Assembly: GCA_964562615.1 (NCBI GenBank)
Contig: CAZLUD010000001.1
Coordinates: 193,072 to 257,071 of the forward strand
Direction of reading: 5' to 3'
DNA: 64,000 bases
Source: an uncultured Candidatus Saccharibacteria bacterium
GTDB lineage: Bacteria; Patescibacteriota; Minisyncoccia; Phycocordibacterales; UBA12088
How positions within the stretch are numbered: position 1 is the first letter of the stretch; every line of letters starts with the position of its first letter. Position numbers and translations under genes: made by a program. The notes beneath the pieces are model-generated. The model was not told the origin of the DNA and ran no database searches. It saw only the letters and a program-made list of their open reading frames with translations. Positions 929 through 61,743 of the stretch are shown piece by piece.

Positions 929-1054
929 ATGAAATATATCGGCTGTGGTGGTGTACTAATTAGTGTGGGGACGCTCACATGTCACAAGAGAAAGCAGCAG
1001 TATCTTGTAACCATTACTTATTAGTACATACATTATTTCATTTACATCACTCGT

Positions 1055-1648: not shown

Positions 1649-1683
1649 CCCCACACACAACAAGCAAGAATAGCAGGGTTATA

Positions 1684-1713
1684 AAACACCACCCCGTAAG
1701 GAGTGGTGTTTTA
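1684..1713 (+). terminator. Rho-independent terminator hairpin
   Basis: The sequence aaaacaccaccccgtaaggagtggtgtttt has an approximately 10-bp stem and is followed by a T-run. Confidence 0.6.
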
Positions 1714-1782
1714 TTATGCAACCAATACCATATTGTACAAAAAAATTGCCGGACGAATCCGGCATAAGTGGTCAAAAATTTA

Positions 1783-2199: not shown

Positions 2200-2240
2200 C
2201 TTTGCCTCCTTAGTTACCCAAATGGGTTATACAATAAAAC

Positions 2241-4091: not shown

Positions 4092-4124
4092 GGTATGTAG
4101 TATAACTCCAGAGTACAGCTTTTA

Positions 4125-6116: not shown

Positions 6117-6555
6117 TATACGTAGAAAGCGAAGTTCTAACTGCGTCTATGGTCGCCTGCCTTGTTTTTGCACGTTTTATTTTTTTAGCGCAGGCGTCAT
6201 CACATAAGACAATACCAACCCATGGCACAAAGTCATTTCTATCCGCCGTAACATGATAAGAAAATTGTGCATCATCAATTTCTTCAAGAACACGAAGTAG
6301 TTCGAGTAAATTACTTATAACGTGTCCACTGCTAAAATAGAATCGATATTCTCCTTCAGCATGAAGCAAATCTTTCTTTTGAGATGATGTAGATGTGCTG
6401 GATTTTCTGGCGGCTTTTGGAAGTGCTGATCGTGAAGCTCGCTTCTTTACTGCTGGCGTTGCTTCTGTAACTACTTCTTTTTTAGCCATACGCATAGTGC
6501 CATTAACATTATAATTGCCCTGTATTCCTAATATATCTCTAAACGTTTCCCACAT
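6109..6555 (-). CDS. Hypothetical protein inside the glucan locus, Lys/Ser-rich at the N-terminus
   Basis: 148-aa ORF that overlaps the GH15 start by 8 nt. I recognise no domain. It may start at the internal Met (MRMAKKE). Confidence 0.4.
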   Translation of the reverse strand: MWETFRDILGIQGNYNVNGTMRMAKKEVVTEATPAVKKRASRSALPKAARKSSTSTSSQKKDLLHAEGEYRFYFSSGHVISNLLELLRVLEEIDDAQFSYHVTADRNDFVPWVGIVLCDDACAKKIKRAKTRQATIDAVRTSLSTYNV

Positions 6556-6597
6556 AGACTGAATGTATATAGTAAGTATACCACCGCGACTCTATAC

Positions 6598-7806
6598 CTA
6601 TATCTTGTTATGCACAGCTTCTATACGAATAGTAAGATCTTTTATCGCATTCATGTAGGCAATAAAGGCATCGTACGGCGAGTCATACGGTGAGAAGTAC
6701 GCATGCACATCACCATCGTTAGACCACTTGGTGCACATATAGTAAAAGTGATCAGATGTCTGTAGTCTTCGCCATGATGTAATAAGCGCAAGGTCATTGG
6801 TAGCAAGAACTTTCTCTTCAAGAGCGTACACTGATTCAATTGCGCTTCGCTGCATATCATTTGCCACCCACGCGGTAAGGTCTCTATCTGTATCTGCCCA
6901 CGTAAGTATGTTTGGTGCGTCAATTTCTCCCCTATCGTCATAGGTCACAACCGTCTGTGATGGGGTCATAAATGTATTATCTGGATGCGCAAGAATTGCA
7001 GAAGGTAACGCACGAAGAAATTCAAATATACCGGTGTCTTCCCATTGATGTTCTCCGAATGTTTCAAAGTCCATAAAGAGATTCACCGTCTCACCATTTC
7101 CATTTATTGATGAGATCCAATGCGCATAGGTATCAGCAGTAAGTGGCCATGATTCCCAACTCTTTTGTCCAAAACGAAACGCAACATCATCAGACAATTT
7201 ATAATTTTTTAAAAGGAGTTTTATGTTGGTTGCTCCTTTTGGATGGTAGACAAAATTAGGACTTCTGTCACCCAAAATGGTATGCCACCCCTCAGCAAGT
7301 ACCGCGCGATACCCAGCGGCATCTGCCCACTGCCCTACATCGTTATTATAGGAAAGCTCGGTATTTCTAAATACCGTTGGTGTTACTCCAAACAAGTCCT
7401 GAATCTTATGTTTATGAAGCAGGACCTGTCGTTCAAATTCTTTTTTTGAATAAAAAAATGCAAGTGAGTGATAGTACGTCTCACTCAACACTTCAACTCG
7501 CCCAGTTGCTATTACCTGTTTAAATAACGTAAGCGTGTCGCTATCCCATGCAGCAAGTTGCTCCAGTACAATACCCGAAAATGAAAGTGCAAAAGTAAAC
7601 TCAGGGTGTCTTTCTAATAATTCCAACATCACCCGTAGCGTTGGCGCATAGGATTTTAGTGCAACCTTTTTCAGTATCCATTCATTATTTAGATTATGTG
7701 CACCAGTCGCGTTAAAGTATTCAGGATCTTCCCCAATATCGAACACTCTATACCGCTTTACCCGGTAGGGCTGATGAACCTGTAAATACATGCAAATTGA
7801 CGCCAT
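6598..7806 (-). CDS. Glycoside hydrolase family 57 (alpha-amylase / 4-alpha-glucanotransferase / branching-enzyme family)
   Basis: N-terminus MASICMYLQVHQPYR is the GH57 signature. The hits ALSFSGIVLEQL and LSETYYHSLAFF are also present. The ORF extends to 7827, but the motif position suggests a start near 7806. Confidence 0.8.
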   Translation of the reverse strand: MASICMYLQVHQPYRVKRYRVFDIGEDPEYFNATGAHNLNNEWILKKVALKSYAPTLRVMLELLERHPEFTFALSFSGIVLEQLAAWDSDTLTLFKQVIATGRVEVLSETYYHSLAFFYSKKEFERQVLLHKHKIQDLFGVTPTVFRNTELSYNNDVGQWADAAGYRAVLAEGWHTILGDRSPNFVYHPKGATNIKLLLKNYKLSDDVAFRFGQKSWESWPLTADTYAHWISSINGNGETVNLFMDFETFGEHQWEDTGIFEFLRALPSAILAHPDNTFMTPSQTVVTYDDRGEIDAPNILTWADTDRDLTAWVANDMQRSAIESVYALEEKVLATNDLALITSWRRLQTSDHFYYMCTKWSNDGDVHAYFSPYDSPYDAFIAYMNAIKDLTIRIEAVHNKI

Positions 7807-7807
7807 A

Positions 7808-9001
7808 TTACATAGGGCTTCTACCAACCCGCTTATAGATTGCTTTCATTCTGAGAGCAGATTTTTCCCATGTTGCTGCTGATGCTTCCGCCTTTCCGTG
7901 GCGAATCAACTCGTGTGCGAGTGCCGGATATTCAAGAGTACAGAGTATTTTATTCGCAAGCTCTTCAACATCCCAAAAATCAACTTTAAGAGCATGAGTA
8001 AGTATTTCAGCAACGCCAGATTGCTTTGACACAATTACCGGTGTGCCGTGCATAAGCGCCTCAAGTGGCACGATGCCAAATGGTTCTGATACCGAAGGCA
8101 TCACCACCACATCAGCAGTTTTATACATACTATCTCGTTCATCTCCCCATAGAGGGCCGGCAAACAGTACGTTCCCTGAAAGTCCAAGTGATGCAGTCTC
8201 CCGAACAATCTGTCGTTCCATATCCCCCGAACCAGAGATGACAAATAATACGTATGGATTTACCTCAGCCACTCTTTTTGCTGCCTTGATAAAATAGTCT
8301 GGGCCTTTTTGAATAGTAATGCGTCCATGATACAGCACCACGCGGTATCCATGTCCTCTCAATACTGCAAGTGATGCCTGCACGTCTGACGCACTTGCTG
8401 CAGTTCCGTTATACACCACTGATATCTTTGATGCATCAATTGAGAATTTTTCTATAATCATGCGTTTTGTTCGCTCACTTACTGCCACAATATGATCTGC
8501 CGATACAAAGGCGCTATGCTCTATATCATAAATCTCTTTGTCCACATGATTACTTGCTGCCTGATCAAAGGATAGTGCGTGCACATGGAGTATAAGTGGC
8601 TTTTTTGTTCTACGCTTTACCGCCACGCCCGCTAAATAGCTTACCCAGTCATGTGCGTGTATTACATCAAAGTCGGTGTCACATACCTGCTCTTGTATCT
8701 GGTGCGCATACACCTTTGATTCATCTATGAGTTTGTTCCATGAGTGGGTAAGCGGCATATCCCCATCTACGCGTAGTGAGGATACATAGGGGCCATGCCA
8801 CCCGTCTTTCGAGAAAAAGTCAGGGACAGAACAAAATATGACCGGCATAGTTGTATCAACCGGCTGTTGTTTAGGGAGCACAAAAGTAATATCGTATCCA
8901 TCAGCAATAAGCGCATCGGTGAGACCCTTGCACGCAACACCAAGACCGCCCATGGTTTGCGGAGGAAAATCCCAACCAATCATCAAAACCCTTTTACTCA
9001 T
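7808..9001 (-). CDS. GT4/GT5-type glycosyltransferase, glycogen (alpha-glucan) synthase-like
   Basis: Start MSKRVLMIGWDFPPQTMGGLGVA, followed by a C-terminal EX7E-type motif EPFGIVPLEALMHGTPVIVS. The ORF extends to 9058, which falls inside an upstream hairpin. Confidence 0.75.
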   Translation of the reverse strand: MSKRVLMIGWDFPPQTMGGLGVACKGLTDALIADGYDITFVLPKQQPVDTTMPVIFCSVPDFFSKDGWHGPYVSSLRVDGDMPLTHSWNKLIDESKVYAHQIQEQVCDTDFDVIHAHDWVSYLAGVAVKRRTKKPLILHVHALSFDQAASNHVDKEIYDIEHSAFVSADHIVAVSERTKRMIIEKFSIDASKISVVYNGTAASASDVQASLAVLRGHGYRVVLYHGRITIQKGPDYFIKAAKRVAEVNPYVLFVISGSGDMERQIVRETASLGLSGNVLFAGPLWGDERDSMYKTADVVVMPSVSEPFGIVPLEALMHGTPVIVSKQSGVAEILTHALKVDFWDVEELANKILCTLEYPALAHELIRHGKAEASAATWEKSALRMKAIYKRVGRSPM

Positions 9002-9043
9002 GAACGCATGTGCTGTATTACTACATTTATATTGTACCTCAAT

Positions 9044-9073
9044 ACAAAAGGGCGACATAGTCGCCCTTTTGTA
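9044..9073. terminator. Strong 13-bp stem hairpin, probably a bidirectional intrinsic terminator
   Basis: The sequence acaaaagggcgac-atag-gtcgcccttttgt is a perfect inverted repeat with T-rich flanks. Confidence 0.4.
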
Positions 9074-9219: not shown

Positions 9220-9795
9220 TTACTTCAAAATAAATGCATCTATTGCGTATCCGATGCCGTATGCAATTGCTGCCGCTACTCCACCAACTAAGAGCATCTC
9301 CATACCAGCATACAGCCAGTGCAGTCGTGTAAAGAGTGCCCTACCACTCCCCACCACAAAAAGGGTAATAGCCGTAGCGATAGCAGAAACTTCAAATTGA
9401 TACTCAGGGGCTACACCAAATAAAAATGGTGTAAGTGGGAGTGTTCCTGCGATAACAAATGCAATAAAGGTAGCGGATCCGTCTCCAATAGGAGAGCGCG
9501 CTTGCACATGAGAGTCTGTATCGTGTACCGCTTGTTCAGAGGAGAGCGCTAAGTATCTTGATGATCCCATCGAGAAACCGTCTGCAATGAGATTTGATAC
9601 TCCCAAGATAATTATTACGGTCGCACCTAAATCTGCTCCTGATGCACCCGAGACAACCGCAAACGTGGTAATAATACCGTCGTTAGCGCCATACACAATT
9701 TCACTCAAGTAATACTGAAACTTGCTACGTATTTGTTCAATCATAACTTCACTAGTGTTCCATGAGTCGTCGTGTACCGCAATAGCTATGCACAA
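9220..9795 (-). CDS. VIT1/CCC1-family protein (PF01988-like) membrane protein
   Basis: The motif YGANDGIITTFAVVSGASGA is the family signature. Hydrophobic helices lie in the C-terminal half. Confidence 0.65.
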   Translation of the reverse strand: MCIAIAVHDDSWNTSEVMIEQIRSKFQYYLSEIVYGANDGIITTFAVVSGASGADLGATVIIILGVSNLIADGFSMGSSRYLALSSEQAVHDTDSHVQARSPIGDGSATFIAFVIAGTLPLTPFLFGVAPEYQFEVSAIATAITLFVVGSGRALFTRLHWLYAGMEMLLVGGVAAAIAYGIGYAIDAFILK

Positions 9796-11111
9796 TCGAG
9801 CGGCTTACTTCCTCGCGCAGTTTCCATTGAATGGTCAGGAAAAAAAGCATAAAAGGTACTTCCTTTGTTCTCTTCAGAAATAAACCAGGTCATGCCTCCG
9901 AGCTCATCGAGTATTTTTTTAACGATGTACAACCCAAGCCCAGTACCATCAACATCAAGCGTCCTAATGTTTTGTGCTCTGAACATCTTTTCATAGAGAC
10001 GAGACTTTTCTTGCACCGGCACGCCATACCCAGAATCAGTAACAGAAAGTAGTATGCCATTTGTTTTTATTGCATGGTCACCAACACATACTTCTCCTTC
10101 TTTCTTTTGCTCAAGACGAATCTCGATAACACTTGTGGGGTACGAATACTTAATGGCATTAGAAATAAAATTACTACACACTATCGATAACAAATTTTTG
10201 TCCGCGACTATATCATACTGTAGCTCGTCATCGATATGTGTTGTTACCGTCATACCCTTTTCCATAATAAGCGGCTGCATACTAACCACCACCTCATCCA
10301 CAAGAGCAGCAAGTGATAGTGTTACAGGTTCAATAGCAAAGGTACCAAGCTCAAGACGTGATACGTTTAACAGCGCATTAACAAGTGTCGTCATTTTTTG
10401 CGTGCTGTCATACGCCTCAGAGAGATACTTTTTTTGAGATGCTGAAATCTCTCCCGCATCACCCGCAAGGAGCATTTCAATGTACCAATTTGCAGTAGCG
10501 AGTGGTGTGCGTAATTGATGAGATGCAACAGAGACAAATTCTGTTTTTGCCGTATCTATTTGCTTTTCTTTTGTAATGTCTCTATCGATACCAACAAAAA
10601 ATTCGACATTGCCGTCATCATCATAAATCGGAGAAATGGTGGTGTGCGTTATGTACCGTTCTCCATTTTTTCTTTTGTTTTCGACTTCACCGATAAAACT
10701 ACGCTTTTGTGAAATAAGTCGTTCAAATACTCCTGCATAAAATACATGTGATGCTTCTGTCCCCCATAGCGATGTGTCTCCTGCCCGCCTTGAAAGCACC
10801 TCAACATTTGAAAATCCCGTTATCTCTTCAACCGCTCTATTGGCGTACGTTATCACTCCATGCGCATCAGTGATAATGATGTGGTCAGAGGCACTTTCAA
10901 CAGCGAGCTTAAATTTCTCTAAATCTTTAGCAATCTCAAGAGCCTTTTCCTTCTCAAGCTCCATATCATGGAGCACATTAGTAAGCGCACTGTATGAAGT
11001 AGCCAAATCTCTATGCTGTTTTTCTAGGCTATCGTCAGTGTGCATGTAGTAGAGGGTAATAAGAGCACTGCAACAGTCGGAACGTATTCCGACTGCGTGC
11101 GCTACTCTCAT
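9786..11111 (-). CDS. PAS-domain sensor histidine kinase
   Basis: The H-box HQLRTPLATANWYIEMLL is present, and the HATPase region contains GTGLGLYIVKKILDELGG. A PAS-like region lies upstream. The gene sits directly 5' of the pilin genes. Confidence 0.8.
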   Translation of the reverse strand: MRVAHAVGIRSDCCSALITLYYMHTDDSLEKQHRDLATSYSALTNVLHDMELEKEKALEIAKDLEKFKLAVESASDHIIITDAHGVITYANRAVEEITGFSNVEVLSRRAGDTSLWGTEASHVFYAGVFERLISQKRSFIGEVENKRKNGERYITHTTISPIYDDDGNVEFFVGIDRDITKEKQIDTAKTEFVSVASHQLRTPLATANWYIEMLLAGDAGEISASQKKYLSEAYDSTQKMTTLVNALLNVSRLELGTFAIEPVTLSLAALVDEVVVSMQPLIMEKGMTVTTHIDDELQYDIVADKNLLSIVCSNFISNAIKYSYPTSVIEIRLEQKKEGEVCVGDHAIKTNGILLSVTDSGYGVPVQEKSRLYEKMFRAQNIRTLDVDGTGLGLYIVKKILDELGGMTWFISEENKGSTFYAFFPDHSMETARGSKPLDCA

Positions 11112-11581
11112 TAACGAGTAACCTGTATTGTCTCATCTAGTTCTGCCTTAGGCGCGATTACTCTCACACGGTTACCAGATGTTGTCGCGATAGAATATCC
11201 GGTGCCATTAGTAAGAGTTGCTCCTTGAGGATCAGTAGGTAGTAGCGTGAGGTACGTCTCACCATCGGTGAGGTCACCCAAAAATACTAGCCCTCCTGAC
11301 GAACAAGTAGTAGATGCTACGCCCGATGCGCATATCTCAATTGGTGAACCATTTGAGGTAAACGGCAACTGTCCGTTTTCGTCGATTGCATACTGATACA
11401 CCGCATTGAGAATTGTGTTTACATCAGCCTTTCTCTGCGCGTTGCGAGTTTCCGCAAGTTGCTTAGATGGGTTGATTGCCACAATCACAATTGATGCAAG
11501 TATACCGATTGCTGCCACTACGAGAAGAATTTCAAGTAGGGTGAAGCCTCGATTTGTTATACGAGTATGTGCTGATTGCAT
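11111..11581 (-). CDS. Type IV pilin-like protein with prepilin-type N-terminal cleavage/methylation domain
   Basis: The N-terminal motif is RGFTLLEILLVVAAIGILASIVIVAINP (G-F-T-L-x-E class III signal). The first ~70 aa are nearly identical to the next ORF. Confidence 0.7.
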   Translation of the reverse strand: MQSAHTRITNRGFTLLEILLVVAAIGILASIVIVAINPSKQLAETRNAQRKADVNTILNAVYQYAIDENGQLPFTSNGSPIEICASGVASTTCSSGGLVFLGDLTDGETYLTLLPTDPQGATLTNGTGYSIATTSGNRVRVIAPKAELDETIQVTR

Positions 11582-11613: not shown

Positions 11614-12072
11614 CTATCGTCGTGCTTCGATTGTTTGACCTTGCTCTGCCTTTGGCGCATGTACCACCACACGACCACTTGAGGTGGTTGCAATAGAGTA
11701 ACCAGCACCACTAAGCACTACCCCACCTTGTGGATCAACAGGAACTGAAATGAGATATGTCTCTGCATCAGTAAGGGTACTTAGATCAACCAAACCTGAA
11801 CATGAGTTTGCCCCCGTTGCGCACACCTCGGTCAAAGTTCCAGTCGATGTGAAAGGAAGTCTACCCTCATTGTCAATCGCGTATTGGTATACGGCAGACA
11901 AGATGGTGTTAACGTCAGCGCGACGTTGCGCGTTGCGAGTTTCCGCAAGTTGCTTAGATGGATTAATAGCGACAATAACTATCGATGCAAGAATTCCGAT
12001 TGCTGCCACCACGAGAAGAATTTCAAGTAGGGTGAATCCGCGATTCTGCGTGCTTCGTGAAGAATTATTCAT
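11614..12072 (-). CDS. Type IV pilin-like protein, tandem paralog of 11111..11581
   Basis: Same N-terminal motif RGFTLLEILLVVAAIGILASIV. The first ~70 aa are near-identical to its neighbour, and the C-terminus diverges. Confidence 0.7.
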   Translation of the reverse strand: MNNSSRSTQNRGFTLLEILLVVAAIGILASIVIVAINPSKQLAETRNAQRRADVNTILSAVYQYAIDNEGRLPFTSTGTLTEVCATGANSCSGLVDLSTLTDAETYLISVPVDPQGGVVLSGAGYSIATTSSGRVVVHAPKAEQGQTIEARR

Positions 12073-12181: not shown

Positions 12182-12553
12182 CTATTCTATGGTTATTGGG
12201 TTTGTTGAAATAAGCTTAATTTGAGCCGTTTTAACTATGTCGGACACGCTACTTGTCGCAAATAAATATGTACTCTCATTAATTGGTTTTACCATCACTA
12301 CACAATTACCGCCGCCAAATGCAAGAGTCTCCTCCCCGGTATAGGTTGCATGTTCTTTAATACGATACAAACCATGTTCAATACATGATTCGATAAGTTG
12401 TACTGCTTGCGCTTCATAATATGTATGCAGGCTCTGCCGTTCAGTATCTATACCTAACAATAGTATCGGGAGAGCAATCGCAACACCAATAGCACCAGCA
12501 ATCATTGTGGCAAACAACGTGATGTATCCTTGTTCATTCGTTCGAGTAGGCAT
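12182..12553 (-). CDS. Small membrane-anchored protein, possible atypical minor pilin or pilus accessory protein
   Basis: N-terminus QGYITLFATMIAGAIGVAIALPILLLG is a hydrophobic helix with no Glu at +5. The size and location inside the pilin cluster suggest a pilus role. Confidence 0.35.
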   Translation of the reverse strand: MPTRTNEQGYITLFATMIAGAIGVAIALPILLLGIDTERQSLHTYYEAQAVQLIESCIEHGLYRIKEHATYTGEETLAFGGGNCVVMVKPINESTYLFATSSVSDIVKTAQIKLISTNPITIE

Positions 12554-12558: not shown

Positions 12559-13074
12559 TTATTGGCGTAATGCTGCAGTGCTTTGTAGTGTGTATTCTGT
12601 TTGTGTTGTATTAGCAAACATAGCACCCTTACGAAACGTAGTGGTCACATTCACTAGCCCAAGTGATGATGACGTTGCAGTGAAGAGTGCCGAAAACTCA
12701 CGTACCACGGTCTCAGGAGAAGTAATGCGCTCAGGTGCTAACGCGCTCTCACTTCTCCATATACCTGACGAAACAAATTCGTATTGTACCGTAGTACCAT
12801 CTTTTTGCTCTAGCACTAGCGTGCTACTAGTACTTAATATAGGTGGATCTAGCACTCGCCACGCCTTTTGTATGTCCTGAGTAATGAGTCGTTGTACCCT
12901 ATCCGCATCTTGAAATAGTTGTGACGTTTCTCTGTGTCGTAATTCTGCACGCATCATGCCGTATATATATGAAGATACCGCTCCTAACACCACTGTCATG
13001 ATGGTGAGGTACAGCATTGTTTCTACTAACGTAAATCCGCGTTGTTTATTCATAGGTGATGTGTACTGATTCAA
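12559..13074 (-). CDS. Pseudopilin or minor pilin with prepilin-type N-terminal domain
   Basis: The N-terminal motif is QRGFTLVETMLYLTIMTVVLGAV. Confidence 0.65.
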   Translation of the reverse strand: MNQYTSPMNKQRGFTLVETMLYLTIMTVVLGAVSSYIYGMMRAELRHRETSQLFQDADRVQRLITQDIQKAWRVLDPPILSTSSTLVLEQKDGTTVQYEFVSSGIWRSESALAPERITSPETVVREFSALFTATSSSLGLVNVTTTFRKGAMFANTTQTEYTLQSTAALRQ

Positions 13075-15844
13075 CGATAGGGGTAGATGATGCCGTATCT
13101 GTCATAAGAAGCATCCGATACTGCAACAATGTATTTGGACCAATTGCGCGAAGCGCATTTGGTATGGCGGCAGACCCATCACCCACCGTATACGGACCAT
13201 ACCAAGGACTAAAAAGTTCTGGGCTGTGCGCTGGTGCATACCTCACCATAAGAGACACAGATGTTGAAGCAGTAGACATCTCTTCCCACGCAATACTACG
13301 AATAGAGACTGTTTCTTTATTAGTATGATACCATCGTGAAGTAAACCAACCCTCCTTTGCATATAGTGGCTCCAATTCTTTTGGTGCAAGAATAAGTAAT
13401 TCTGCAGTATTGTTTTCGCAAGCAACAAACACCATTTGGTGGTATGTGGTAACCCCATTGCAATCACCTGCAGTGTTGTATGTTGATGCGATGGTCGGAT
13501 TTGTTGAAGACGCCACCGTAAGAGCAACAAATCCCGCAGCGTTGTTATTAGTAGCTACAAATACCGTAGGAAATAGTACGCTAATTCCTGTCACATCCTC
13601 TCCTATATTATATGTTCCCTTATAGCGTGGTGCCGTTATGGTAGAGATATCTACTATATGCATATCGCCTTCAGATGATGCATGATTAGTGCCAACATAT
13701 GCAGCGGTGTCAGTAACAGCAACTGAAGTAGCAGATAATGTCCCCGGTATATCCACCAATGCGGTTACCGTAGGTACTGCATGATTGGTTGCATCGAGCA
13801 CCGTCAATTCACTTGTATTGTGATCAGTTGCCAAAAAGAGAGTGGTATTTTGCACATCAATACCAAGCACATCCTCATTTACCTCATACCCCCCTATCTG
13901 CGTAAATGTGACAAAAGAAGGATTGGTGGTATTTGGAACAAGAGTATGGAGCTCATAGTTAAGTCCCGAAGAAGTGTTTTGTATTGTACCGACAAATAAT
14001 GTGGTGCCTACCACTCCTATTGCTCGTGCGTCTGAACCTGAATCAAGATTATAGTAACCAACTTTAATTATGTTGGTAGGATCCTTTACATATAAAACCA
14101 TTATCTCTTCTGAGTTATGTGATGTAGCAAGATATGCAAAATCTCCCACCACCACAACATCAAAGACACTTGCAGAAAGATTGAGTCCATCTAAATAAAG
14201 AGGGGTTGTTGGATCACTCACTTCATATACTGCTATATCCATACTTGCACCGGCATCAGTTCTGGTGACATAGGCAAGCGAGTCAACAACCTCAACATGC
14301 ACTGCGTTATCTGCGCTAACAATATCTTCCTTTGCTACTATGACCGGCTCTGCCCAACCACCTCGGCCAGCAGAAACAACACTCAATACTCCCTGCGCGC
14401 CGCCCGTTATCAAAAAACGTCCCGTCTTTATCATGGCATAGGGACTATAGGCATTCTCTACATCGATACTATCGGTACGGTAATCTGCCAAGGATACTAC
14501 CCTCACCTCGGCACCATATGATGATTCTTGCGCAATAAATAATCGCTCGTGCACATCATCATACGATAGTGACGTGATATTGGATGTGCCGTAATCAGTG
14601 TTTAGCAATTCTTCAACGTCGCTTGTTGGAGTGATTGGATGCTCAAATGAAAGCCCTATAACTCTATTAGTATCCATACCGATAAATACTTGATTCGTGT
14701 GTACACTAATCGCTCTTGCGTTTGGATTGTTTGCGTCACTGGGATTATACGTACGTACCACCTCACAGACCAACTCTGGACATTTTTTATAATCAACTAT
14801 CCATAGTTCGCTCTCATTATCTGTCGCAAGGTACGCGTACTCATCGGTAAGGGCTATTGCGCGAACCGCGTCACCAACCTCAACTGTGCCAAGTAATTCA
14901 CCTGTTTCTAAGTATACAAAAAATTCGCTCTCTACTTGTGTGGGCTTTCCTACCGCTACATACCCATCATGTTGGGCAATTGCTAGCGCACCCGCAGAGC
15001 CGGGTACATCAACGGGAGTAGTACTTGCGGTAGCTCGGTCAAACAACAGCATGTCTGCGTTTTGTGTATTAGTAGCGATAAATACGGTACTAGTTGCAAC
15101 AGCAAGCGAGCGAATACTATGTCCAATGTCATACTCGGCTATTGGGGTAAGTATCCCTTCTGATAGTGCCGCAATATCAAGAAGCGCAAGCTCTGGCGAG
15201 GTGACGCTCTCATCTCGTCCCACATAAAGATATGTTGCATCTGCCCCAAGAGCGCGTAATGATGCGCTACCAGGCAAGTCATGAGTATGAAAGGTAAAGC
15301 CCGTTTTCCAATCCCCTTCTTTTTCAAGAGAAATACTACCGTGTGATTCATCTACATATATAGAGTGTCTCTTACCCAAAGAAAACTCAGCGACAGTGGT
15401 ATCAATAAACGCAAGCATCCCGGATTGTACCCAATTGTAAAAGTAGGTAATAAGAGAAATCATTCGGGTGGCATATCCTCTCTCTTGCCAAGATACCGTG
15501 GCAGTAACTTGCTTGGTGTGCTCATCGTGTGATGCTATTTCAAGCGTACGGGTAAGTTGCTCGTGTACATCGGGAGGGCTATGCAATACATAGCCATCCG
15601 CCTCTACGGTTATACCGTAGGTGCCATCGACAAGATGAGAGAAGCCAGCTTCTCGTATATCGCGCGCAACCTCGATTGCCTGCGTGGCGAGCGCGGTTGC
15701 AGAGAGTCTATGCAATGAATCAGATGTGCTTTCTTCAGAGTACAGCAAGACCCCCGCAAAGACCGTGCTATATATAGCAAGAAGTGCCCCACTCAGTAGT
15801 ACCTCAACAATTGAAAATCCTCTTTCAGAATTACTCATACTCAT
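13046..15844 (-). CDS. Giant pseudopilin (932 aa) with a prepilin-type N-terminus fused to an LVIVD-repeat beta-propeller-like domain, a putative pilus-tip adhesin
   Basis: N-terminus ERGFSIVEVLLSGALLAIYSTVFAG. Over nine repeats of the LVIVD type are present, including YLATDNESELWIVDY, FLATDHNTSELTVLDATN, AYVGTNHASSEGDMHIVDIS, VFVATNNNAAGFVALTVAS and VFVACENNTAELLILAP. Confidence 0.7.
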   Translation of the reverse strand: MSMSNSERGFSIVEVLLSGALLAIYSTVFAGVLLYSEESTSDSLHRLSATALATQAIEVARDIREAGFSHLVDGTYGITVEADGYVLHSPPDVHEQLTRTLEIASHDEHTKQVTATVSWQERGYATRMISLITYFYNWVQSGMLAFIDTTVAEFSLGKRHSIYVDESHGSISLEKEGDWKTGFTFHTHDLPGSASLRALGADATYLYVGRDESVTSPELALLDIAALSEGILTPIAEYDIGHSIRSLAVATSTVFIATNTQNADMLLFDRATASTTPVDVPGSAGALAIAQHDGYVAVGKPTQVESEFFVYLETGELLGTVEVGDAVRAIALTDEYAYLATDNESELWIVDYKKCPELVCEVVRTYNPSDANNPNARAISVHTNQVFIGMDTNRVIGLSFEHPITPTSDVEELLNTDYGTSNITSLSYDDVHERLFIAQESSYGAEVRVVSLADYRTDSIDVENAYSPYAMIKTGRFLITGGAQGVLSVVSAGRGGWAEPVIVAKEDIVSADNAVHVEVVDSLAYVTRTDAGASMDIAVYEVSDPTTPLYLDGLNLSASVFDVVVVGDFAYLATSHNSEEIMVLYVKDPTNIIKVGYYNLDSGSDARAIGVVGTTLFVGTIQNTSSGLNYELHTLVPNTTNPSFVTFTQIGGYEVNEDVLGIDVQNTTLFLATDHNTSELTVLDATNHAVPTVTALVDIPGTLSATSVAVTDTAAYVGTNHASSEGDMHIVDISTITAPRYKGTYNIGEDVTGISVLFPTVFVATNNNAAGFVALTVASSTNPTIASTYNTAGDCNGVTTYHQMVFVACENNTAELLILAPKELEPLYAKEGWFTSRWYHTNKETVSIRSIAWEEMSTASTSVSLMVRYAPAHSPELFSPWYGPYTVGDGSAAIPNALRAIGPNTLLQYRMLLMTDTASSTPIVESVHITYE

Positions 15845-16307
15845 TATGTGCCTCAGTCACCCCATAACGATTTATTACAATAGTTCGTGAACCAAGTGAG
15901 GGCGGTACCAAGGTAATGGATGTAGGGGCAAACTCACGCATACGCGCAGACGAAAATTGAACCTCCCGCGCACCAGTGAGTCCGTATCGAGAACTAAATG
16001 AAATAACCTCATCAGCATGAGGGATTCTCTGTGCGTATGACGGCCCCGCATAGAGGGTAGTACTTGTTGCAGCAACATATACCCCCCACTCCCCCTCTCG
16101 TTTGTTTGAATACGCATATGCACTTGCCCGAGAAATCTGCTCGCGTATTGCTCCCTCCGCAACCTTACTATCTACCCGCTCAAGATACGAAAGATAGACT
16201 GGAGCCATGATTGAAATCATAAGCGCAAAAATACTTACTGAAAGCAGTAATTCTAGGACGGTAAATCCTTTTTGTCTTACGGGTGTTTTACCAGTATGCA
16301 TAGCCAA
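15831..16307 (-). CDS. Pseudopilin (GspH/FimT-like) with prepilin-type N-terminus
   Basis: The N-terminal motif is QKGFTVLELLLSVSIFALMISIMAPV. Confidence 0.65.
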   Translation of the reverse strand: MAMHTGKTPVRQKGFTVLELLLSVSIFALMISIMAPVYLSYLERVDSKVAEGAIREQISRASAYAYSNKREGEWGVYVAATSTTLYAGPSYAQRIPHADEVISFSSRYGLTGAREVQFSSARMREFAPTSITLVPPSLGSRTIVINRYGVTEAHNEYE

Positions 16308-16313: not shown

Positions 16314-17660
16314 TTACAGCTCTCCCTCTCCGGTGCTTGATTCACGTATATCACTTCTTTTTATCCATCCTTCAACTCCAGGTTTAACTATCACCCGTAT
16401 CCAGCTAGGAGTTACCTCGACGACATCGTATCCCACACTCATCTGCGCTCGTTGCATCACCTCTGTTTGCTCATCAGCAACTGCATATACCGGCACATCG
16501 TCAAACAATGTGTAGGCGATATCGCCAATAGGATTACCCTCCGTTACTGGTGCATTTGTCTTTGCTCCCATGTTAAGCCCACTCGTAAGATTGTATACCG
16601 GCAATATCACCGCAAACGCCACCGCAACAACTCCCGCCCATATGATAATAAGAAGTACCGGCTCAATGATGACAGAAAGATTTTTTGTCGCGATATCCGT
16701 ACGCTCTTCATACACCCTTCCTATGTGCATAAAGGTATCTGACAAGGTGCCTGAATTTTCTCCTGCGATAATGAGTTGCCCCACACTAGAAGGAATCAAT
16801 CGTTCGTACGAAGGGTACTCATCAAAAGCAAGCCGAAAGGTGTATCCGTTTTCAATTTGTGTTTCAAGATACGAATAAAATTCTTTATATGAAATAAACG
16901 TTGTCGCATCTTTAAGCGCGCGGATTGCTTCAACGAGCGTAAGACCGCTTGCAAGGAGGGTACCCATGATAAATCCGAGCCGTGACACCTCTATTTGTCG
17001 TACTATATTTTTAATGACCGGCAATCGCTGCATTATCATTTGCCCGATAAAACGAGTCTTTGAATACACAAACACAAAAAACATCGTGAGCGCGATAGTG
17101 ACAATAAATAACGGTACTGCGATTGTTCCGTACTTACTCAAAAATGTTCCAAAATCAATAAGTACCCTCGTAAGAAACGGGAGATCAAGTTGTAGTTGTT
17201 CAAACACAGTAGCGAGTCGTGGCAGAATAAGCCACGATATGCCAATGCCAATAACTAGTGTCACCCCAAGCACAAAGACTGGGTACATCATCGCGCTCTT
17301 TAACTTTGATTTAAACATTCTGTTCTTGCTTTGCGTGGTGACGACAAATTTAAGGTTATGACTTAATCGTCCATTCTCTTCACCTATTTTGACTATCGCA
17401 ACGACATACTCAGGAAATAACCCAGTACGAACTAACGCTTTCCAAAACGGAACGCCATTTTCGATATCTTCTCGTAGTCCAACAATAATTCGCTGCATGG
17501 TGCTACTCTTCATTTCTTTTTGCACCGCATCAACAGCTTGAATTACCCCCAACCCTGACGCGGTAAGGACCGAAAGGTTTTCAATAAAATAATCACGCTC
17601 CTCGCGTATACCAAGAGTTTCAAAAGGAAGCCGTTTGTGTGAGTATTCTGTATTATTCAT
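16314..17660 (-). CDS. pilC: Type IV pilus assembly protein PilC (GspF-family platform protein) with a C-terminal SH3-like extension
   Basis: Two T2SS-F repeats and three TM segments are present. An extra ~80 aa at the C-terminus, VYAVADEQTEVMQRAQMSVGYDVVEVTPSWIRVIVKPGVEGWIKRSDI, resembles SH3b. Confidence 0.85.
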   Translation of the reverse strand: MNNTEYSHKRLPFETLGIREERDYFIENLSVLTASGLGVIQAVDAVQKEMKSSTMQRIIVGLREDIENGVPFWKALVRTGLFPEYVVAIVKIGEENGRLSHNLKFVVTTQSKNRMFKSKLKSAMMYPVFVLGVTLVIGIGISWLILPRLATVFEQLQLDLPFLTRVLIDFGTFLSKYGTIAVPLFIVTIALTMFFVFVYSKTRFIGQMIMQRLPVIKNIVRQIEVSRLGFIMGTLLASGLTLVEAIRALKDATTFISYKEFYSYLETQIENGYTFRLAFDEYPSYERLIPSSVGQLIIAGENSGTLSDTFMHIGRVYEERTDIATKNLSVIIEPVLLIIIWAGVVAVAFAVILPVYNLTSGLNMGAKTNAPVTEGNPIGDIAYTLFDDVPVYAVADEQTEVMQRAQMSVGYDVVEVTPSWIRVIVKPGVEGWIKRSDIRESSTGEGEL

Positions 17661-17663: not shown

Positions 17664-19346
17664 TTATTCTGCGCGTGACGGTGGCACTACACGCACAAGC
17701 TCAGCTATGGTGGTTTCTCCATGAAGAACTTTTTCCATGCCATTTTCAAACATGGATTGCGTACCTAAGGTACGTGCAAGTGTCCACACCTCATGCGCAT
17801 TAGGTGATGCGACAATACACTCCTGCATCTCTTTTCCTACAGGGATAAGCTCAAACACTCCCGTTCTTCCTGAGAATCCGCTATGGTTACATGCCTCGCA
17901 TCCTTTACCCTCATACGCAACCAAACTTTTTCCTTGTATCATGTTCGCTGCTTGTGGTGAAAGATTGGACACCTCTTCTTTGCTTATTTCTTTACTATAT
18001 TTACACTGCTCGCATATCCTTCTCACAAGCCGCTGCCCGATAACCAGCTCAAGGGTGGACGAAAGTAGAAATGACTCGATACCCATATCAAGAAGACGAG
18101 GTATTGCGGTAGCGGCATCATTTGCGTGAAAGGTAGAAAATAGCAAGTGCCCAGTAAGTGCGGCGTTAACCGCAATTTCTGCTGTCTCCTTATCACGGAT
18201 CTCGCCCACCAAAATAATATCCGGGTCTTGTCTCACAATCGACCGAAGTCCTTCAGCAAATGAGAGGTTGGTCTGATTATTTACCGACATATGATTAACT
18301 CCCTCTATTTTGTATTCAACCGGATCCTCAATGGTTGCAATGTTTATTTCTGGATTATTTAAAATCTTTATGAGTGAGTACAACGTGGTTGTCTTTCCTG
18401 AACCCGTAGGACCAGTTACCAAAATCATGCCGAATGGCTTTTTTGCGGCAGCAAGAAGAATTGTTTGGTGTGCATCAGATAGCCCAATATCACCAAGAGT
18501 AAAGTTACGAATATATGACGAAAGCACTCTAATTACCACTTTTTCTCCATCGATGAGTGGCAATATTGAGACGCGCAAATCCACCGATATGGTTGGTGTT
18601 CTAAATCGTATAGCTCCATCTTGCGCGGCACGATGTTCATCAGTTCGTAACCGTCCAAGTACTTTTATTCTGTTTAACACCGTCTCATACAAATCTTTAG
18701 GCAACCTTCCCGCTTCCTTTAATATGCCATCAATACGAAAACGAATGATCACCTCACCCTCTCGCGGTTCAAAGTGAATATCCGATGCTCTAAATACGAG
18801 CGCCTCTTCAACTATCTCTTCAATAAGCGTAGGGGCGATGCGTCTGTCTTTGGTTTCTATGATACTTGCAAATCGGGTCGAGAGCGCCTTTCTGTATTCA
18901 ATCAATATTGCGTCTATATCAATAGGAAGCGAAAATGCGAGTACTATTTTTTTCTGGGGAAAAAGCTCCTTTAGTGCACCTAGAAGTCCTCGGGCTTTTG
19001 GACTGTCTGTAGCAACCACATACTCGGTATCTCTTTTTTCAAAGAGTACTACCCTATACTTAACGGCAATCTCTTCTGGAATTTCTACAATCTGATCATG
19101 TGGTGGCTTGTGTGAGTTAAGGTCTGCATACACCACAGAAAAGTGCTCTGAAATCGCTTGACCGAGTAAGTCATTTGTAATGAGGTTCTCCTTATAAAGA
19201 TACTCAAGCGCGTGGGTATCCTCTTTTTCTGCAAAATCAAGTGCTTTCTGCTTATCTTCTAGAGCGATATAGTTTCCAGAAACTAAAATCGAAAGCATTT
19301 TTTCATCAGCAACATGTGTTGCCTTTCCAGACTTTTGTAGTGCCAT
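17664..19346 (-). CDS. pilB: Type IV pilus assembly ATPase PilB (GspE family)
   Basis: An N-terminal T2SSE_N-like domain is followed by the Walker A motif VTGPTGSGKTTTLYS. The C-terminus has the tetracysteine motif CEQC...CEAC. Confidence 0.9.
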   Translation of the reverse strand: MALQKSGKATHVADEKMLSILVSGNYIALEDKQKALDFAEKEDTHALEYLYKENLITNDLLGQAISEHFSVVYADLNSHKPPHDQIVEIPEEIAVKYRVVLFEKRDTEYVVATDSPKARGLLGALKELFPQKKIVLAFSLPIDIDAILIEYRKALSTRFASIIETKDRRIAPTLIEEIVEEALVFRASDIHFEPREGEVIIRFRIDGILKEAGRLPKDLYETVLNRIKVLGRLRTDEHRAAQDGAIRFRTPTISVDLRVSILPLIDGEKVVIRVLSSYIRNFTLGDIGLSDAHQTILLAAAKKPFGMILVTGPTGSGKTTTLYSLIKILNNPEINIATIEDPVEYKIEGVNHMSVNNQTNLSFAEGLRSIVRQDPDIILVGEIRDKETAEIAVNAALTGHLLFSTFHANDAATAIPRLLDMGIESFLLSSTLELVIGQRLVRRICEQCKYSKEISKEEVSNLSPQAANMIQGKSLVAYEGKGCEACNHSGFSGRTGVFELIPVGKEMQECIVASPNAHEVWTLARTLGTQSMFENGMEKVLHGETTIAELVRVVPPSRAE

Positions 19347-19376: not shown

Positions 19377-19793
19377 CTATCGTGTAAGTATTGCTCTCTT
19401 AGTGTGTATTCTGCTAATTTCTGCCTTTTGGTGTGGGATATAGGTTTGTACTAATTCCACAATTTTATGAAGTGGCGTGTTTGATTTAATAAAATAGTCA
19501 CTTGCACCAAGCTCTCGAACTCGTGCGATATCTTCTCGCTGGCTTAAATTGCTACAGACAAGAATACGCACTCCCTTTTTTCCTAACACCTTAAGTACAG
19601 AGAACCCGTCCATGACCGGCATAACCAAATCGAGAATCACCACATCAAATTCGCTTGCTTCAAATGCCTCGATTCCTTGTTTGCCATTATGCGCAACCAC
19701 CACCTCATACCCCTCCCTCGTTAGCTTAAGCTCTAATGCGCGCGCCATAGGGCGCTCGTCATCCACTACCAAAATGCGGTAACTGTAAGCCAT
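19377..19793 (-). CDS. Single-domain response regulator (CheY-like receiver)
   Basis: ILVVDDERPMARALELKL...FDVVILDLVMPVMDGF carries the conserved Asp residues. It lies directly upstream of pilB. Confidence 0.8.
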   Translation of the reverse strand: MAYSYRILVVDDERPMARALELKLTREGYEVVVAHNGKQGIEAFEASEFDVVILDLVMPVMDGFSVLKVLGKKGVRILVCSNLSQREDIARVRELGASDYFIKSNTPLHKIVELVQTYIPHQKAEISRIHTKRAILTR

Positions 19794-55800: not shown

Positions 55801-55802
55801 GC

Positions 55803-57999: not shown

Positions 58000-58019
58000 G
58001 TTGACTATAGTGTAACAGA

Positions 58020-58604
58020 TTATCGTGGTACTGAAATCTGTCCTGTTGTGTATATTTCAACTAACTGCTCATACCCTTGTGAGCTCTTAAGATAAAACTG
58101 CCCGCGAGGGTATTCAGCAGTAGTTCCCGCTACTCGTATAACCGCCTCTGGATTGGGTCGTTGAAAGGTTACAACAAGCGCCGAGGAGGTACTGCAACTT
58201 GCTGAACCGGCATTATTAAGTACGCATACCCTATCAAGCCCAATGCCCGGTGGAAAGGCAAGTGTCTCAATGACCGTGTCTACTCCACTTGAATACTGCT
58301 TGTCTTGGTCGATGTCACTAAAAAATGTGATTGTGCCACCATTAAGGCCCGTTGCATGGACTCCGTATCCAACATCAAAATCGCTTCCCTCGCCTCTTAC
58401 CGCAACTCCATATGATTGTGCTTGTCGTAGCATTACCGCAAGCTCGTATCCAACGTTAGTAAGCTGTAAGTTACCCCTTCCTGAGGCGCCACCGGCAAGT
58501 ACCATTATTGAGACCATGATAAAAATAGATGTAACTACCAATACCTCAACAAGGGTAAATGCCTTGGTGTTAGTAGAAGAGACTTGTTGGGAGAGTGAAT
58601 GCAT
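58020..58604 (-). CDS. Pseudopilin (GspH/FimT-like). The likely start is the Met preceding KAFTLVEVL.
   Basis: Contains TKAFTLVEVLVVTSIFIMVSIMVLAG. The longer ORF to 58733 overlaps pilD, so an internal start is more plausible. Confidence 0.6.
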   Translation of the reverse strand: MHSLSQQVSSTNTKAFTLVEVLVVTSIFIMVSIMVLAGGASGRGNLQLTNVGYELAVMLRQAQSYGVAVRGEGSDFDVGYGVHATGLNGGTITFFSDIDQDKQYSSGVDTVIETLAFPPGIGLDRVCVLNNAGSASCSTSSALVVTFQRPNPEAVIRVAGTTAEYPRGQFYLKSSQGYEQLVEIYTTGQISVPR

Positions 58605-59385
58605 TGATAGAAAAAAATAACACGAGTAGAAATCCAATCGCAAGAAATGGAGCGAACGGTACTTCACTATGTATTGTAAGTGAGTTCTGCATAAACGGAA
58701 AGCCGTAGCGCTTGATAAGTAATAGTACAACACTAACCACTGCCCCTATCCAAAACGCAAGCATAAATGACGAGAGGGCTCCGACTATACCAAGAAACCA
58801 CCCAATACCAAGCGCAAGCTTTGCATCCGCAAAACCTATCCACGCTCCTTTTGATATAACCCATAACGCTGCAAATGGAAATGCAGCGAGTGCGCCACTA
58901 AGGAGTAGTAGTGGGTCAGGATGCATCACCAGACTTCCCTCATCTATGTATACAGAAAGTAGTGCAAGGACATTAAAGCTATACACAAACACATCTGGAA
59001 TAATTTTGTGTCGTAGGTCATACACCACAATAGCAACAAGGGTTGCTATTGCCGCGAGTAAGATACCCGCATCAATAACATTAGTTGTTATAAACGGAAC
59101 AGATGCAAATAGCACTCCCGTTGCTATCTCTACCAATAAATACTGTAGCGAGAGGGGCTTTTTGCATGTGCGGCATCTTCCTCGTAAAAAGATATATGAA
59201 AATAGCGGCACTAATTCATACGCACGGAGGGTACGCATGCAGTGTGGACAGTGTGACCTGCCGGTTATTGTTTCTCCCTTTTCAATACGTAGCACCACAA
59301 CATTAACAAAACTGCCAATACTCACGCCGAGGAGAAATAAAAATCCAATGATTATTTCTAGTTCCATGTATAGCAATAATAACAC
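58570..59385 (-). CDS. pilD: Prepilin peptidase (A24 family, PilD)
   Basis: N-terminal zinc-binding CPHC...CRTC, the catalytic-Asp region VYDLRHKIIPD, and multiple TM helices. Confidence 0.85.
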   Translation of the reverse strand: MLLLLYMELEIIIGFLFLLGVSIGSFVNVVVLRIEKGETITGRSHCPHCMRTLRAYELVPLFSYIFLRGRCRTCKKPLSLQYLLVEIATGVLFASVPFITTNVIDAGILLAAIATLVAIVVYDLRHKIIPDVFVYSFNVLALLSVYIDEGSLVMHPDPLLLLSGALAAFPFAALWVISKGAWIGFADAKLALGIGWFLGIVGALSSFMLAFWIGAVVSVVLLLIKRYGFPFMQNSLTIHSEVPFAPFLAIGFLLVLFFSINAFTLPTSLFY

Positions 59386-59387
59386 AA

Positions 59388-59414: not shown

Positions 59415-59430
59415 ATGCTTTTTTGTTACA

Positions 59431-61736: not shown

Positions 61737-61743
61737 ACGGTGG

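Follow-up and report, generated by a model that had tools for sequence, protein, structure and literature searches.

A modular minor pilin with two predicted LVIVD-type beta-propellers in a pilus operon of an uncultured Candidatus Saccharibacteria bacterium

The window analysed here, a 64,000-nt stretch of contig CAZLUD010000001.1 from an uncultured Candidatus Saccharibacteria bacterium, carries on its minus strand a tight operon in the order response regulator, PilB, PilC, minor pilin, a 932-aa modular minor pilin (hereafter BIG), two minor pilins and two major pilins, in which neighbouring genes, as far as the fourth minor pilin, are separated by −29 to +30 nt. A single-domain response regulator (19377..19793; Response_reg, 78.9 bits) heads the operon, as it likewise precedes PilB in the related loci L001/L004 and L005, and is followed by a PilB-type assembly ATPase of 560 aa (17664..19346; T2SSE, 415 bits, plus an MshEN domain) and a PilC-type platform protein of 448 aa (16314..17660; T2SSF, 147 bits). 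The first of four minor-pilin genes encodes 158 aa (15831..16307; QKG|FTVLE; N_methyl, 24.4 bits), occupies the same position in six loci, shows weak GspG/ComGD/GspH-type matches and overlaps by 14 nt the second, BIG (13046..15844, stop codon included). BIG overlaps in turn, by up to 29 nt, the gene for the third, a protein of 171 aa assigned by its N_methyl match (33.4 bits) and synteny (12559..13074; QRG|FTLVE), with weak PpdC/PpdB/GspH-type matches. The fourth, recognized by its N-terminus (EQG|YITLF, lacking Glu5), is a pilin-like protein of 123 aa in a GspK/PilX-like position (12182..12553), which has no Pfam or NCBIfam match and whose homologs in L004, L008 and L013 hold the corresponding position. 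After a gap of 109 nt come a candidate major pilin of 152 aa (11614..12072; NRG|FTLLE), with N_methyl, TIGR02532 (28.8 bits) and GspG/PilA-type matches and 96% identity in an ortholog locus, and its 156-aa paralog, a second candidate major pilin (11111..11581), whose gene overlaps by 1 nt that for a PAS histidine kinase (9786..11111; HATPase_c, HisKA, PAS) at the operon end. Typing of the minor pilins as GspH/I/J/K or PilV/W/X was rejected, the NCBIfam matches being far below cut-offs and conflicting, and slots were therefore assigned by gene order and the presence or absence of Glu5. BIG is thus the second of four minor-pilin genes, lying after pilB/pilC and before the two major-pilin genes, and the neighbouring genes bear out its placement among minor pilins near PilC/PilB in the earlier note, which had been made from the sequence alone.

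The same note had mentioned two pilus loci, and a second is indeed present at 55375-63983. It encodes, also on the minus strand, a PilD-type prepilin peptidase (58570..59385; A24_N_bact, 103 bits; Peptidase_A24, 37.8 bits), which is expected to be the enzyme that processes BIG, so that a cognate peptidase and, with PilB/PilC directly upstream of BIG, the assembly machinery are both at hand. Neither PilT nor PilM/N/O was found within the window for the locus containing BIG (locus A).

BIG is a single ORF with an ATG start that spans exactly 13046..15844 on the minus strand, as judged from the ORF list, its translation and its end-to-end relatives. Its database copy (P0001) starts two codons further in and has 930 aa, as does the 77% identical ortholog in locus L003, with its start two codons later. 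The N-terminus, MSMSNSERG|FSIVEVLLSGALLAIYSTVFAGVLLY, opens with a short charged leader whose last residue is Gly (residues 1-9, 15818..15844), and prepilin-peptidase cleavage is predicted after Gly9. Cut at this site (ERG|FSIVE), the mature protein would have Phe as its first and Glu as its fifth residue, and it has a hydrophobic stretch of ~25 residues whose mean Kyte-Doolittle hydropathy reaches 2.08. Gly at −1 is shared by 207 of 224 motif-positive relatives, and Glu14 (Glu5 of the mature protein) is nearly invariant in an alignment of 55 sequences and invariant in one of 27. Moreover, the N-terminal profile of the family matches, in register, the type IV pilins Geopilin, PilA, MshA and TcpA in the PDB, the family leader Gly aligning with the cleavage-site Gly of these solved structures. 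In the Pfam/NCBIfam scan neither N_methyl (PF07963) nor TIGR02532 matched BIG itself at E ≤ 1, and only a weak PpdB-type match was obtained (E 0.003), but N_methyl matched 23 of the 27 N-terminal modules of BIG relatives at E ≤ 0.1. The 932-aa ORF with class III signal and hydrophobic helix (residues 12-66 in the structural model below) described earlier was thereby confirmed, and the N-terminus is not a Sec signal, which that description would not have survived. Judged by its sequence, BIG is a type IV minor pilin of Saccharibacteria (TM7) with a class III signal and Glu5.

An AlphaFold2 model of BIG based on an alignment of 55 family members (pLDDT 90.1, superseding a run on three sequences with pLDDT 60) predicts a pilin stalk and head followed by two propellers, in agreement with the proposed fusion of a pilin N-terminus to a propeller; block pLDDT is 83-94 from residue 41 onward. 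The pilin module (residues 10-138, 15431..15817), delimited from the model, the alignment, N_methyl in relatives and the PDB pilin matches, comprises the alpha1 helix with Glu5 (12-66 in the model) and a small antiparallel beta-sheet head with strands at 74-81, 84-88, 97-107, 110-121 and 125-136, so that BIG is predicted to have the 'lollipop' pilin fold, an alpha1 helix of ~50 residues on an antiparallel beta-sheet. There follow a short segment, S1 (residues 141-192, 15269..15424; strands 144-189 in the model), propeller 1 (residues 193-508, 14321..15268), propeller 2 (residues 509-826, 13367..14320) and a C-terminal beta-sandwich domain (residues 827-932, 13049..13366; strands 848-931). In the model, 56 strands form 14 four-stranded blades of 39-53 aa, and these form two seven-bladed propellers, whose blades span residues 196-506 and 514-~830. 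The LVIVD-like repeats noted before are therefore real, but their count, given as nine or more, is revised to 14.

Self-BLAST detected no internal repeats in BIG because the blades are too divergent, and the repeats were therefore established from the model and from hhalign, in which the two propeller halves proved homologous to each other (probability 100%, E 3e-65). The Pfam search suggested in the earlier note succeeded for the relatives and not for BIG itself: LVIVD (PF08309/IPR013211, a repeat of ~42 aa with a gathering cut-off of 20.2 bits) was found in BIG in one stretch only, at residues 705-746 in propeller 2, with a subthreshold 19.3 bits, but of the 10 full-length relatives tested 8 scored above the threshold, with 28-102 bits in up to four stretches, which fall in the propeller 2 half. 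Since these end-to-end relatives pass the cut-off, BIG is, by homology to them and not by its own score, a divergent LVIVD member. A PDB sequence match of BIG to a haloalkylphosphorus hydrolase (E 0.05) was judged not significant, and the repeats were not assigned to an enzymatic family without a propeller, the outcome that the earlier note had named as one that would refute it.

S1 would provide the N-terminal strands, and the C-terminal domain (the ~105 last residues) the remainder, of one split beta-sandwich, or 'clasp', around both propellers. We infer this pairing since the two segments co-occur: among 247 proteins, both are present in 119, neither in 110 and one alone in 18. The profile of the C-terminal domain gave no Pfam or PDB sequence match, and this domain is the least conserved part of BIG relative to the L003 ortholog (63% identity).

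A word-index search returned six matches and hinted at a rare protein, an impression overturned by an exhaustive HMMER search, which recovered hundreds of BIG relatives with one to about six propellers. The class III motif was present in 117 of the best 155 representatives of these relatives, and in 107 of the 117 proteins related to a Saccharibacteria form with a single propeller. Related loci, searched for with a three-sequence alignment as query, revealed the cassette PilB-PilC-pilin-BIG-pilin-pilin(no Glu5)-major pilin at six distant Patescibacteria loci (L004-L008, L013) and also at L001; the slot held by BIG is fixed in Saccharibacteria, Komeilibacteria, Uhrbacteria and other Patescibacteria. 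With more than 50 cluster representatives matching BIG over its full length and the arrangement of the genes conserved, its pilin-propeller architecture is far beyond chance. The earlier view of that architecture as unusual is thus not upheld, given the hundreds of relatives, about 30 proteins already catalogued (PMC8179133) and the propeller-bearing minor pilin PilX2 (PMC12206443).

The catalogued proteins are those with IPR012902-IPR013211 architecture in Dataset S1 of Raynaud et al. 2021, where IPR013211 is LVIVD, and include an 860-aa Candidatus Falkowbacteria protein described with 12 LVIVD copies (PMC8179133). Like BIG, they are Patescibacteria proteins in which a class III/N_methyl motif precedes tandem LVIVD repeats, and BIG belongs with them as a divergent member; it also falls under the definition of a modular pilin given there, an N-terminal pilin module followed by at least one module not specific to pilus biology. 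That catalogue lists domain strings only, with the repeat as a 'motif of unknown function' and without fold, gene context or function. To it we add the two seven-bladed propellers, the split clasp, the series of sizes and the conserved position in the cassette.

The closest functional parallel is PilX2 of Nanosynbacter lyticus TM7x, like BIG a propeller-bearing minor pilin of Saccharibacteria, whose gene belongs to a group of four minor-pilin genes and one major-pilin gene. It has a seven-bladed beta-propeller and was proposed as the adhesin of a host-binding pilus; its deletion halved host binding and led to a loss of competitive fitness (Grossman et al. 2025, ISME J; PMC12206443). We recovered pilX2 as L057:2936-4666 from matches to three of the four primers published for the gene. 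PilX2 carries a single RCC1-type propeller, in which the motif CWGxNxxGQLG occurs six times, lacks Glu5 (DG|YSLVL) and occupies the fourth minor-pilin slot, beside PilA2, whereas BIG has Glu5, the second slot, and two LVIVD propellers with a clasp domain. The two proteins gave no BLASTP alignment at E ≤ 10, HMMs of the BIG-family propeller, S1 and C-terminal domain did not match PilX2, the HMM of the BIG pilin module scored 4.1 bits with PilX2 and 21.1 bits with PilV2, and BIG showed no Pfam match to RCC1. Orthology of BIG and PilX2 was consequently rejected by direct comparison, both the carrier pilin and the propeller type being different.

Outside Patescibacteria, PilB (with a vWA module) and PilC (lectin) of Streptococcus sanguinis, a monoderm without secretin, likewise join a small pilin module to a bulky binding module, but with one extra module rather than three, with other effector folds and with no sequence relationship to BIG. 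GspK lacks Glu5. BIG retains it, and was therefore not classed as GspK/PilX-type, the neighbouring 123-aa ORF (G|YITLF) being the one without Glu5. Large minor pilins with extra domains, namely GspK/PilX-type proteins, CofB and ComZ, are found at filament tips (PMC8179133); in GspK, however, the pilin head is interrupted by the extra domain, and the additional modules of CofB and ComZ are of beta-repeat or beta-solenoid type, whereas in BIG the modules are appended after an intact small head. In PilY1/PilC of Pseudomonas, Neisseria and Myxococcus, a beta-propeller at the pilus tip also acts with minor pilins in adhesion, but PilY1 is a non-pilin carried on the minor-pilin complex via its IPR008707 propeller (PMC8179133). 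With its pilin N-terminus and no PilY1/PilC-family Pfam match at E ≤ 1, BIG is not PilY1-like, as the earlier note had held. PilY1 carries a signal of the Sec type and lacks an alpha1 helix.

From these comparisons we infer cleavage of BIG, its incorporation into the filament, its location at the tip and its ligand as follows. PilD from the other pilus locus would cut after Gly9 and methylate Phe1, and the hydrophobic helix would retain the protein in the membrane, where BIG and the three small minor pilins could form a priming complex on PilC. PilB would then insert major pilins beneath this complex, which would therefore end up at the distal tip, and it is at the tip only that the ~90-kDa extension of BIG, with two discs of ~5 nm, would find room. 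There the propellers would serve as ligand-binding (adhesin) module, the ligand most likely being some component on the cell surface of the bacterium that hosts the episymbiont. That BIG is a modular minor pilin that primes assembly with the small pilins and acts as tip adhesin via its propellers is the reading we favour, and on balance we hold it to be probable. Its design would be that of the S. sanguinis modular pilins and of TM7x PilX2, on another carrier pilin and with another propeller family. Modular pilins have been predicted to act as adhesins at the pilus tip, and S. sanguinis PilB is an experimentally demonstrated adhesin modelled at that position (PMC8179133). Between the window and the L003 locus, the minor pilins are 63-77% identical and the machinery 92-97%, and this faster divergence agrees with exposed, ligand-facing proteins, although weaker constraint could be the cause instead. 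Because BIG is not homologous to PilX2, a tip-adhesin role would extend to it by analogy only; on the same footing, a part in episymbiosis, with two loci doing two jobs, is plausible.

In other type IV systems it is such sets of minor pilins that prime assembly. The main role of BIG as a minor pilin could be in structure or priming, its propellers forming a bulky cap, a spacer or a cell wall-spanning element and not a specific adhesin, which would agree with its constant position among the four genes of the conserved minor-pilin set, with the known minor-pilin tip complex (PMC8179133) and with the even conservation over all domains of the BIG family, in which no hypervariable face was detected at the sequence level. 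We nevertheless find this unlikely: propeller number varies from one to about six while the pilin module stays constant, which better suits a modular effector, and the small single-propeller forms show that priming does not require the added mass.

A membrane-anchored surface protein that uses its class III signal for export and anchoring only and is never polymerised, as for archaeal class III sugar-binding proteins, seems to us distinctly improbable. Its bulky cargo could hinder incorporation of BIG into a filament, for which there is no proof in the sequence, but Glu5 is kept almost invariantly in the family, the model includes a full pilin head domain, and at every locus examined BIG is translationally coupled to minor pilins between pilC and the major-pilin genes. 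Very improbable, in our view, is a pilus-displayed enzyme with catalytic LVIVD propellers (hydrolase, lactonase or lyase-like) acting on the host envelope or a substrate. We give least credence to a reading of BIG as DNA receptor on a pilus of the competence type, comparable to ComZ of Thermus, since the ComGD/ComGE/ComGF-type matches of neighbouring pilins that might favour it are weak and far below curated cut-offs, the operon contains no DNA-uptake genes and its major pilins come after the minor pilins, comGC being first in Com operons. Patescibacteria are naturally transformable, and large minor pilins such as ComZ can bind DNA (PMC8179133), but the non-essential pilus of TM7x is reported to be dispensable for competence (PMC12206443).

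The tip-adhesin reading bears on how ultrasmall episymbionts find and hold their hosts, for which PilX2 of TM7x is so far the one adhesin candidate with genetic support. If they are tip adhesins, members of the BIG family would be candidate host-range determinants across the radiation, and two unrelated propellers, LVIVD and RCC1, would have been put to the same use on separate minor pilins. More speculatively, and in our estimate rather unlikely, the PilB-PilC-pilin-[LVIVD-propeller pilin]-pilin-pilin-major pilin cassette might be an old host-recognition device common to Patescibacteria, with the propeller pilin as tip adhesin. Its propeller faces would set host range, and reach or avidity would be adjusted through how many propellers, 1 to ~6, are threaded through the clasp domain; PilX2 of the oral TM7x, with its RCC1 propeller, would have arisen independently by convergence on another minor pilin. 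For annotation, word-index searches and Pfam models under-detect this family: BIG falls below the N_methyl and LVIVD cut-offs, yet is a clear member by profile and fold.

The modular minor pilin under study, BIG, is encoded by a single minus-strand ORF (13046–15844; 932 aa, ATG start), whose coordinates were correct in an earlier note that omitted the strand. Because its database copy (P0001; 100% identical) and its closest ortholog (77%; locus L003) each start two codons downstream (930 aa), the leader is taken to be 7–9 residues long. The N-terminus, MSMSNSERG/FSIVEVLLSGALLAIYSTVFAGVLLY (slashes mark cleavage positions), opens with a short polar leader whose last two residues are Arg-Gly; Phe at +1 and Glu at +5 follow, inside a hydrophobic stretch. 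BIG is barely visible to Pfam models: scanned alone, it yielded one LVIVD stretch (residues 705–746) at 19.3 bits, under the cut-off of 20.2, and no other Pfam match, and NCBIfam gave only a weak PpdB-type prepilin match.

A word-index search with BIG returned six matches only, a misleading gauge of family size. Exhaustive profile searching with three full-length sequences against 1.84 billion cluster representatives recovered more than 50 representatives of 900–1000 aa that align end to end with BIG, together with shorter and longer forms. The 55-sequence alignment has the N-terminal consensus G-x-S-L-x-E-V, with Glu5 nearly invariant; a class III motif was found within the first 70 residues in 117 of the best 155 representatives, and in 107 of the 117 listed relatives of the 502-aa Saccharibacteria form (locus L008). 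Moreover, N_methyl was detected in 23 of 27 N-terminal modules (E ≤ 0.1), and the N-terminal profile matches solved type IV pilins (Geopilin, PilA, MshA, TcpA and CFA/III) in register at the cleavage site. The LVIVD assignment fell short for BIG itself, but eight of ten full-length relatives passed the cut-off (28–102 bits). Some entries are named 'prepilin-type N-terminal cleavage/methylation domain-containing protein', 'pseudopilin PulG' or 'beta-propeller domain-containing protein'.

AlphaFold2 modelled BIG with a pLDDT of 60 from three sequences and of 90.1 (pTM 0.76) from 55. The 55-sequence model comprises a helix (residues 12–66), a beta-sheet (74–136), strands at 144–189 (within segment S1, residues 141–192), two sets of 28 strands each (196–506 and 514–835) and a C-terminal beta domain (848–931). 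The two sets therefore correspond to two seven-bladed propellers, predicted on a pilin stalk where the earlier note had anticipated one propeller; the LVIVD-type repeats that it put at '9 or more' are indeed propeller repeats, but the model has 14 blades. Profile searches found no sequence relative of the C-terminal domain in Pfam or PDB. When an HMM for each part of BIG was run on 272 collected proteins, S1 and the C-terminal domain were present together in 119, both absent in 110 and one alone present in 18 of the 247 with a pilin module. We infer that the two form one putative split beta-sandwich, or clasp, with the propellers inserted as a loop. Family forms comprise pilin plus one propeller (~470 aa) and pilin plus S1, propellers and C-terminal domain, with one propeller (~610 aa), two as in BIG (~930 aa), about three (1266 aa) or about five or six (1650–1998 aa). 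The giant members P0008 (1998 aa), P0010 (1650 aa) and P0009 (1266 aa) have roughly three to six LVIVD propellers threaded between S1 and the C-terminal domain, on a ~140-residue pilin module like that of BIG.

Locus A, the pilus operon holding BIG, is transcribed from the minus strand in the order single-domain (CheY-like) response regulator (19377–19793), PilB-type ATPase (17664–19346), PilC-type platform (16314–17660), 158-aa pilin (QKG/FTVLE; 15831–16307), BIG, 171-aa pilin (QRG/FTLVE; 12559–13074), 123-aa pilin-like protein without Glu5 (EQG/YITLF; 12182–12553), near-identical major-pilin candidates (NRG/FTLLE; 11614–12072 and 11111–11581) and PAS histidine kinase (9786–11111), confirming the location of BIG among minor pilins, between the pilins and PilC/PilB. 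Genes between the regulator and the fourth minor pilin are spaced at −29 to +30 nt, 109 nt lie ahead of the major-pilin genes, and the kinase gene begins within the last pilin gene, with which it shares 1 nt. Directly downstream of the operon is a glycogen/alpha-glucan cluster (4125–9058, minus strand; GH15 glucoamylase-like, GH57 and GT4/GT5 starch-synthase-like glycosyltransferase genes), which is collinear in L003.

The second type IV pilus locus, locus B (55375–63983, minus strand), contains a partial PilB-type ATPase (63270–63983), a response regulator (62863–63264), a PilT-type ATPase (61744–62847), PilC, a PilD-type prepilin peptidase (58570–59385; A24_N_bact, 103 bits), two major-pilin candidates and four minor pilins ordered in the same fashion as in locus A, the second being a 533-aa modular pilin (IRG/YTLVE; 56398–57999) and the last lacking Glu5 (KG/FTLLY; 55375–55800). 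It resembles 'locus one' of the Saccharibacteria strain TM7x. No PilT occurs among the locus A genes within the window, and retraction of that pilus, if any, would rely on the locus B PilT. Because each locus opens with a response-regulator gene immediately followed by one for an ATPase, and the kinase ends locus A, two-component control of pilus activity or expression is suggested.

The order (regulator)–PilB–PilC–small pilin–propeller pilin–pilin–pilin without Glu5–major pilin(s) recurs in six further loci: one from a second Saccharibacteria MAG, one each from Komeilibacteria and Uhrbacteria, two from unclassified MAGs and one from a contig binned as 'Nanoarchaeia'. Three of the six end at a contig edge soon past the propeller-pilin gene. 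The propeller pilin thus belongs to the standard set of parts of a pilus system in Patescibacteria. The contig binned under 'Candidatus Nanoarchaeia archaeon' (L006, DASVHF010000049.1; 5.9 kb) carries a bacterial PilB–PilC–pilin–propeller pilin cassette, with a PilB 40% identical to that of the window; it probably stems from Patescibacteria and was mis-binned with a DPANN archaeal MAG. In L001, a MAG locus with the 25% homolog P0003, chemotaxis genes (CheB, CheA, CheC/X and CheD; 831–3659) lie upstream of the pilus operon, and the minor pilins are followed by a PilM-like protein of 525 aa that contains SH3 domains (13788–15365); locus A in the window has neither as a neighbour.

A genome scan found the full-length BIG ortholog in L003, whose MAG bears the title 'uncultured Candidatus Saccharibacteria bacterium'. 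Fifteen genes around it share their order with the window, which is accordingly assigned to a Saccharibacteria (TM7) genome. Between the two loci, identity reaches 92–97% for the machinery and major pilins (PilB, 97%), whereas the four minor pilins are just 63–77% identical and so diverge faster. Within BIG, the C-terminal domain is least conserved (63%) and propeller 2 is the most conserved globular domain (82%), the N-terminal helix alone being higher (85%).

With the strand, the 14 blades and the additional clasp domain as corrections, the observation in the earlier note is confirmed, and its interpretation is supported in part. The fusion of pilin and propeller within a minor-pilin cluster is real, but the architecture, which the note called unusual, is common and was already catalogued. 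The term 'modular pilins' was defined by Raynaud et al. (2021; PMC8179133), who showed S. sanguinis PilB to be an adhesin, modelled at the tip, and whose InterPro survey counted 1,219 modular pilins in 264 architectures. Its Dataset S1 includes IPR012902–IPR013211 xN strings, about 30 proteins in total, and the text highlights a Falkowbacteria protein of 860 aa in which a 'motif of unknown function' (IPR013211) occurs 12 times. This motif is the LVIVD repeat (PMC10210494), first described from archaeal and bacterial surface proteins (PMC2447325). The functional idea of a propeller-pilin adhesin is also already published for the same phylum: TM7x makes two pili, and its minor pilin PilX2, with a seven-bladed RCC1-type propeller, was proposed to serve as adhesin on the thin pilus that binds the host, its deletion halving host binding and abolishing competitive fitness (Grossman et al., 2025; PMC12206443).

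To compare PilX2 with BIG, we recovered the pilX2 locus (PilZ2–PilV2–PilW2–PilX2–PilA2) from oral metagenome contigs, using a published pilX2 primer as DNA pattern. Contig L057 matches three of the four published primers exactly, framing a 576-aa ORF (2936–4666); for the remaining one, the downstream forward primer, the gene-specific portion has no match there but is matched in the parallel contigs L058 and L062. PilX2 lacks Glu5 (DG/YSLVL) and has six CWGxNxxGQLG motifs. PilX2 was not aligned with BIG by BLASTP, nor matched by the family's HMMs for propeller, S1 and C-terminal domain, and the BIG pilin-module HMM scored highest with PilV2 (21.1 bits) and lowest with PilX2 (4.1 bits). By these comparisons, the two Saccharibacteria propeller pilins are analogous, not homologous. 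In TM7x the RCC1 propeller is on the fourth, Glu5-less pilin, whereas the LVIVD propellers of BIG are borne by a pilin that has Glu5 and takes the second slot; the window's fourth-slot pilin is small (123 aa). The predicted BIG fold, the clasp domain with variable propeller number, the conserved cassette position of the propeller pilin and its lack of homology to PilX2 are new.

The pilin signal and fold, two propellers, operon, PilD, conserved cassette and faster minor-pilin divergence were established computationally, and BIG is best read as a candidate pilus-tip adhesin. PilD would cut it after Gly9, the four minor pilins would assemble as a priming complex on PilC, and PilB-driven addition of major pilins would carry this complex to the tip. 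The propellers, being wider than the thin TM7x filaments (1.8–3.2 nm; PMC12206443), could be accommodated only there, where they would bind a ligand, probably on a host bacterium. Less probable readings would make BIG a cap with a structural role, a surface protein anchored in the membrane, an enzyme or a DNA receptor.

Elsewhere in the window, a 1190-aa protein (28988–32560, minus strand) starts with a membrane anchor that is distinct from a pilin signal. Its residues 966–1018 match the Peptidase_S74 intramolecular-chaperone domain, known from endosialidases and the tail spikes of phages, and its C-terminus is an Ig-like surface domain; it may form trimeric fibres on the cell surface. Dihydroorotate dehydrogenase (35504–36384, minus strand) is split into two overlapping ORFs (35929–36384 and 35504–35983), each matching a different part of the DHO_dh model, which looks like a frameshift, pseudogene or sequencing error.
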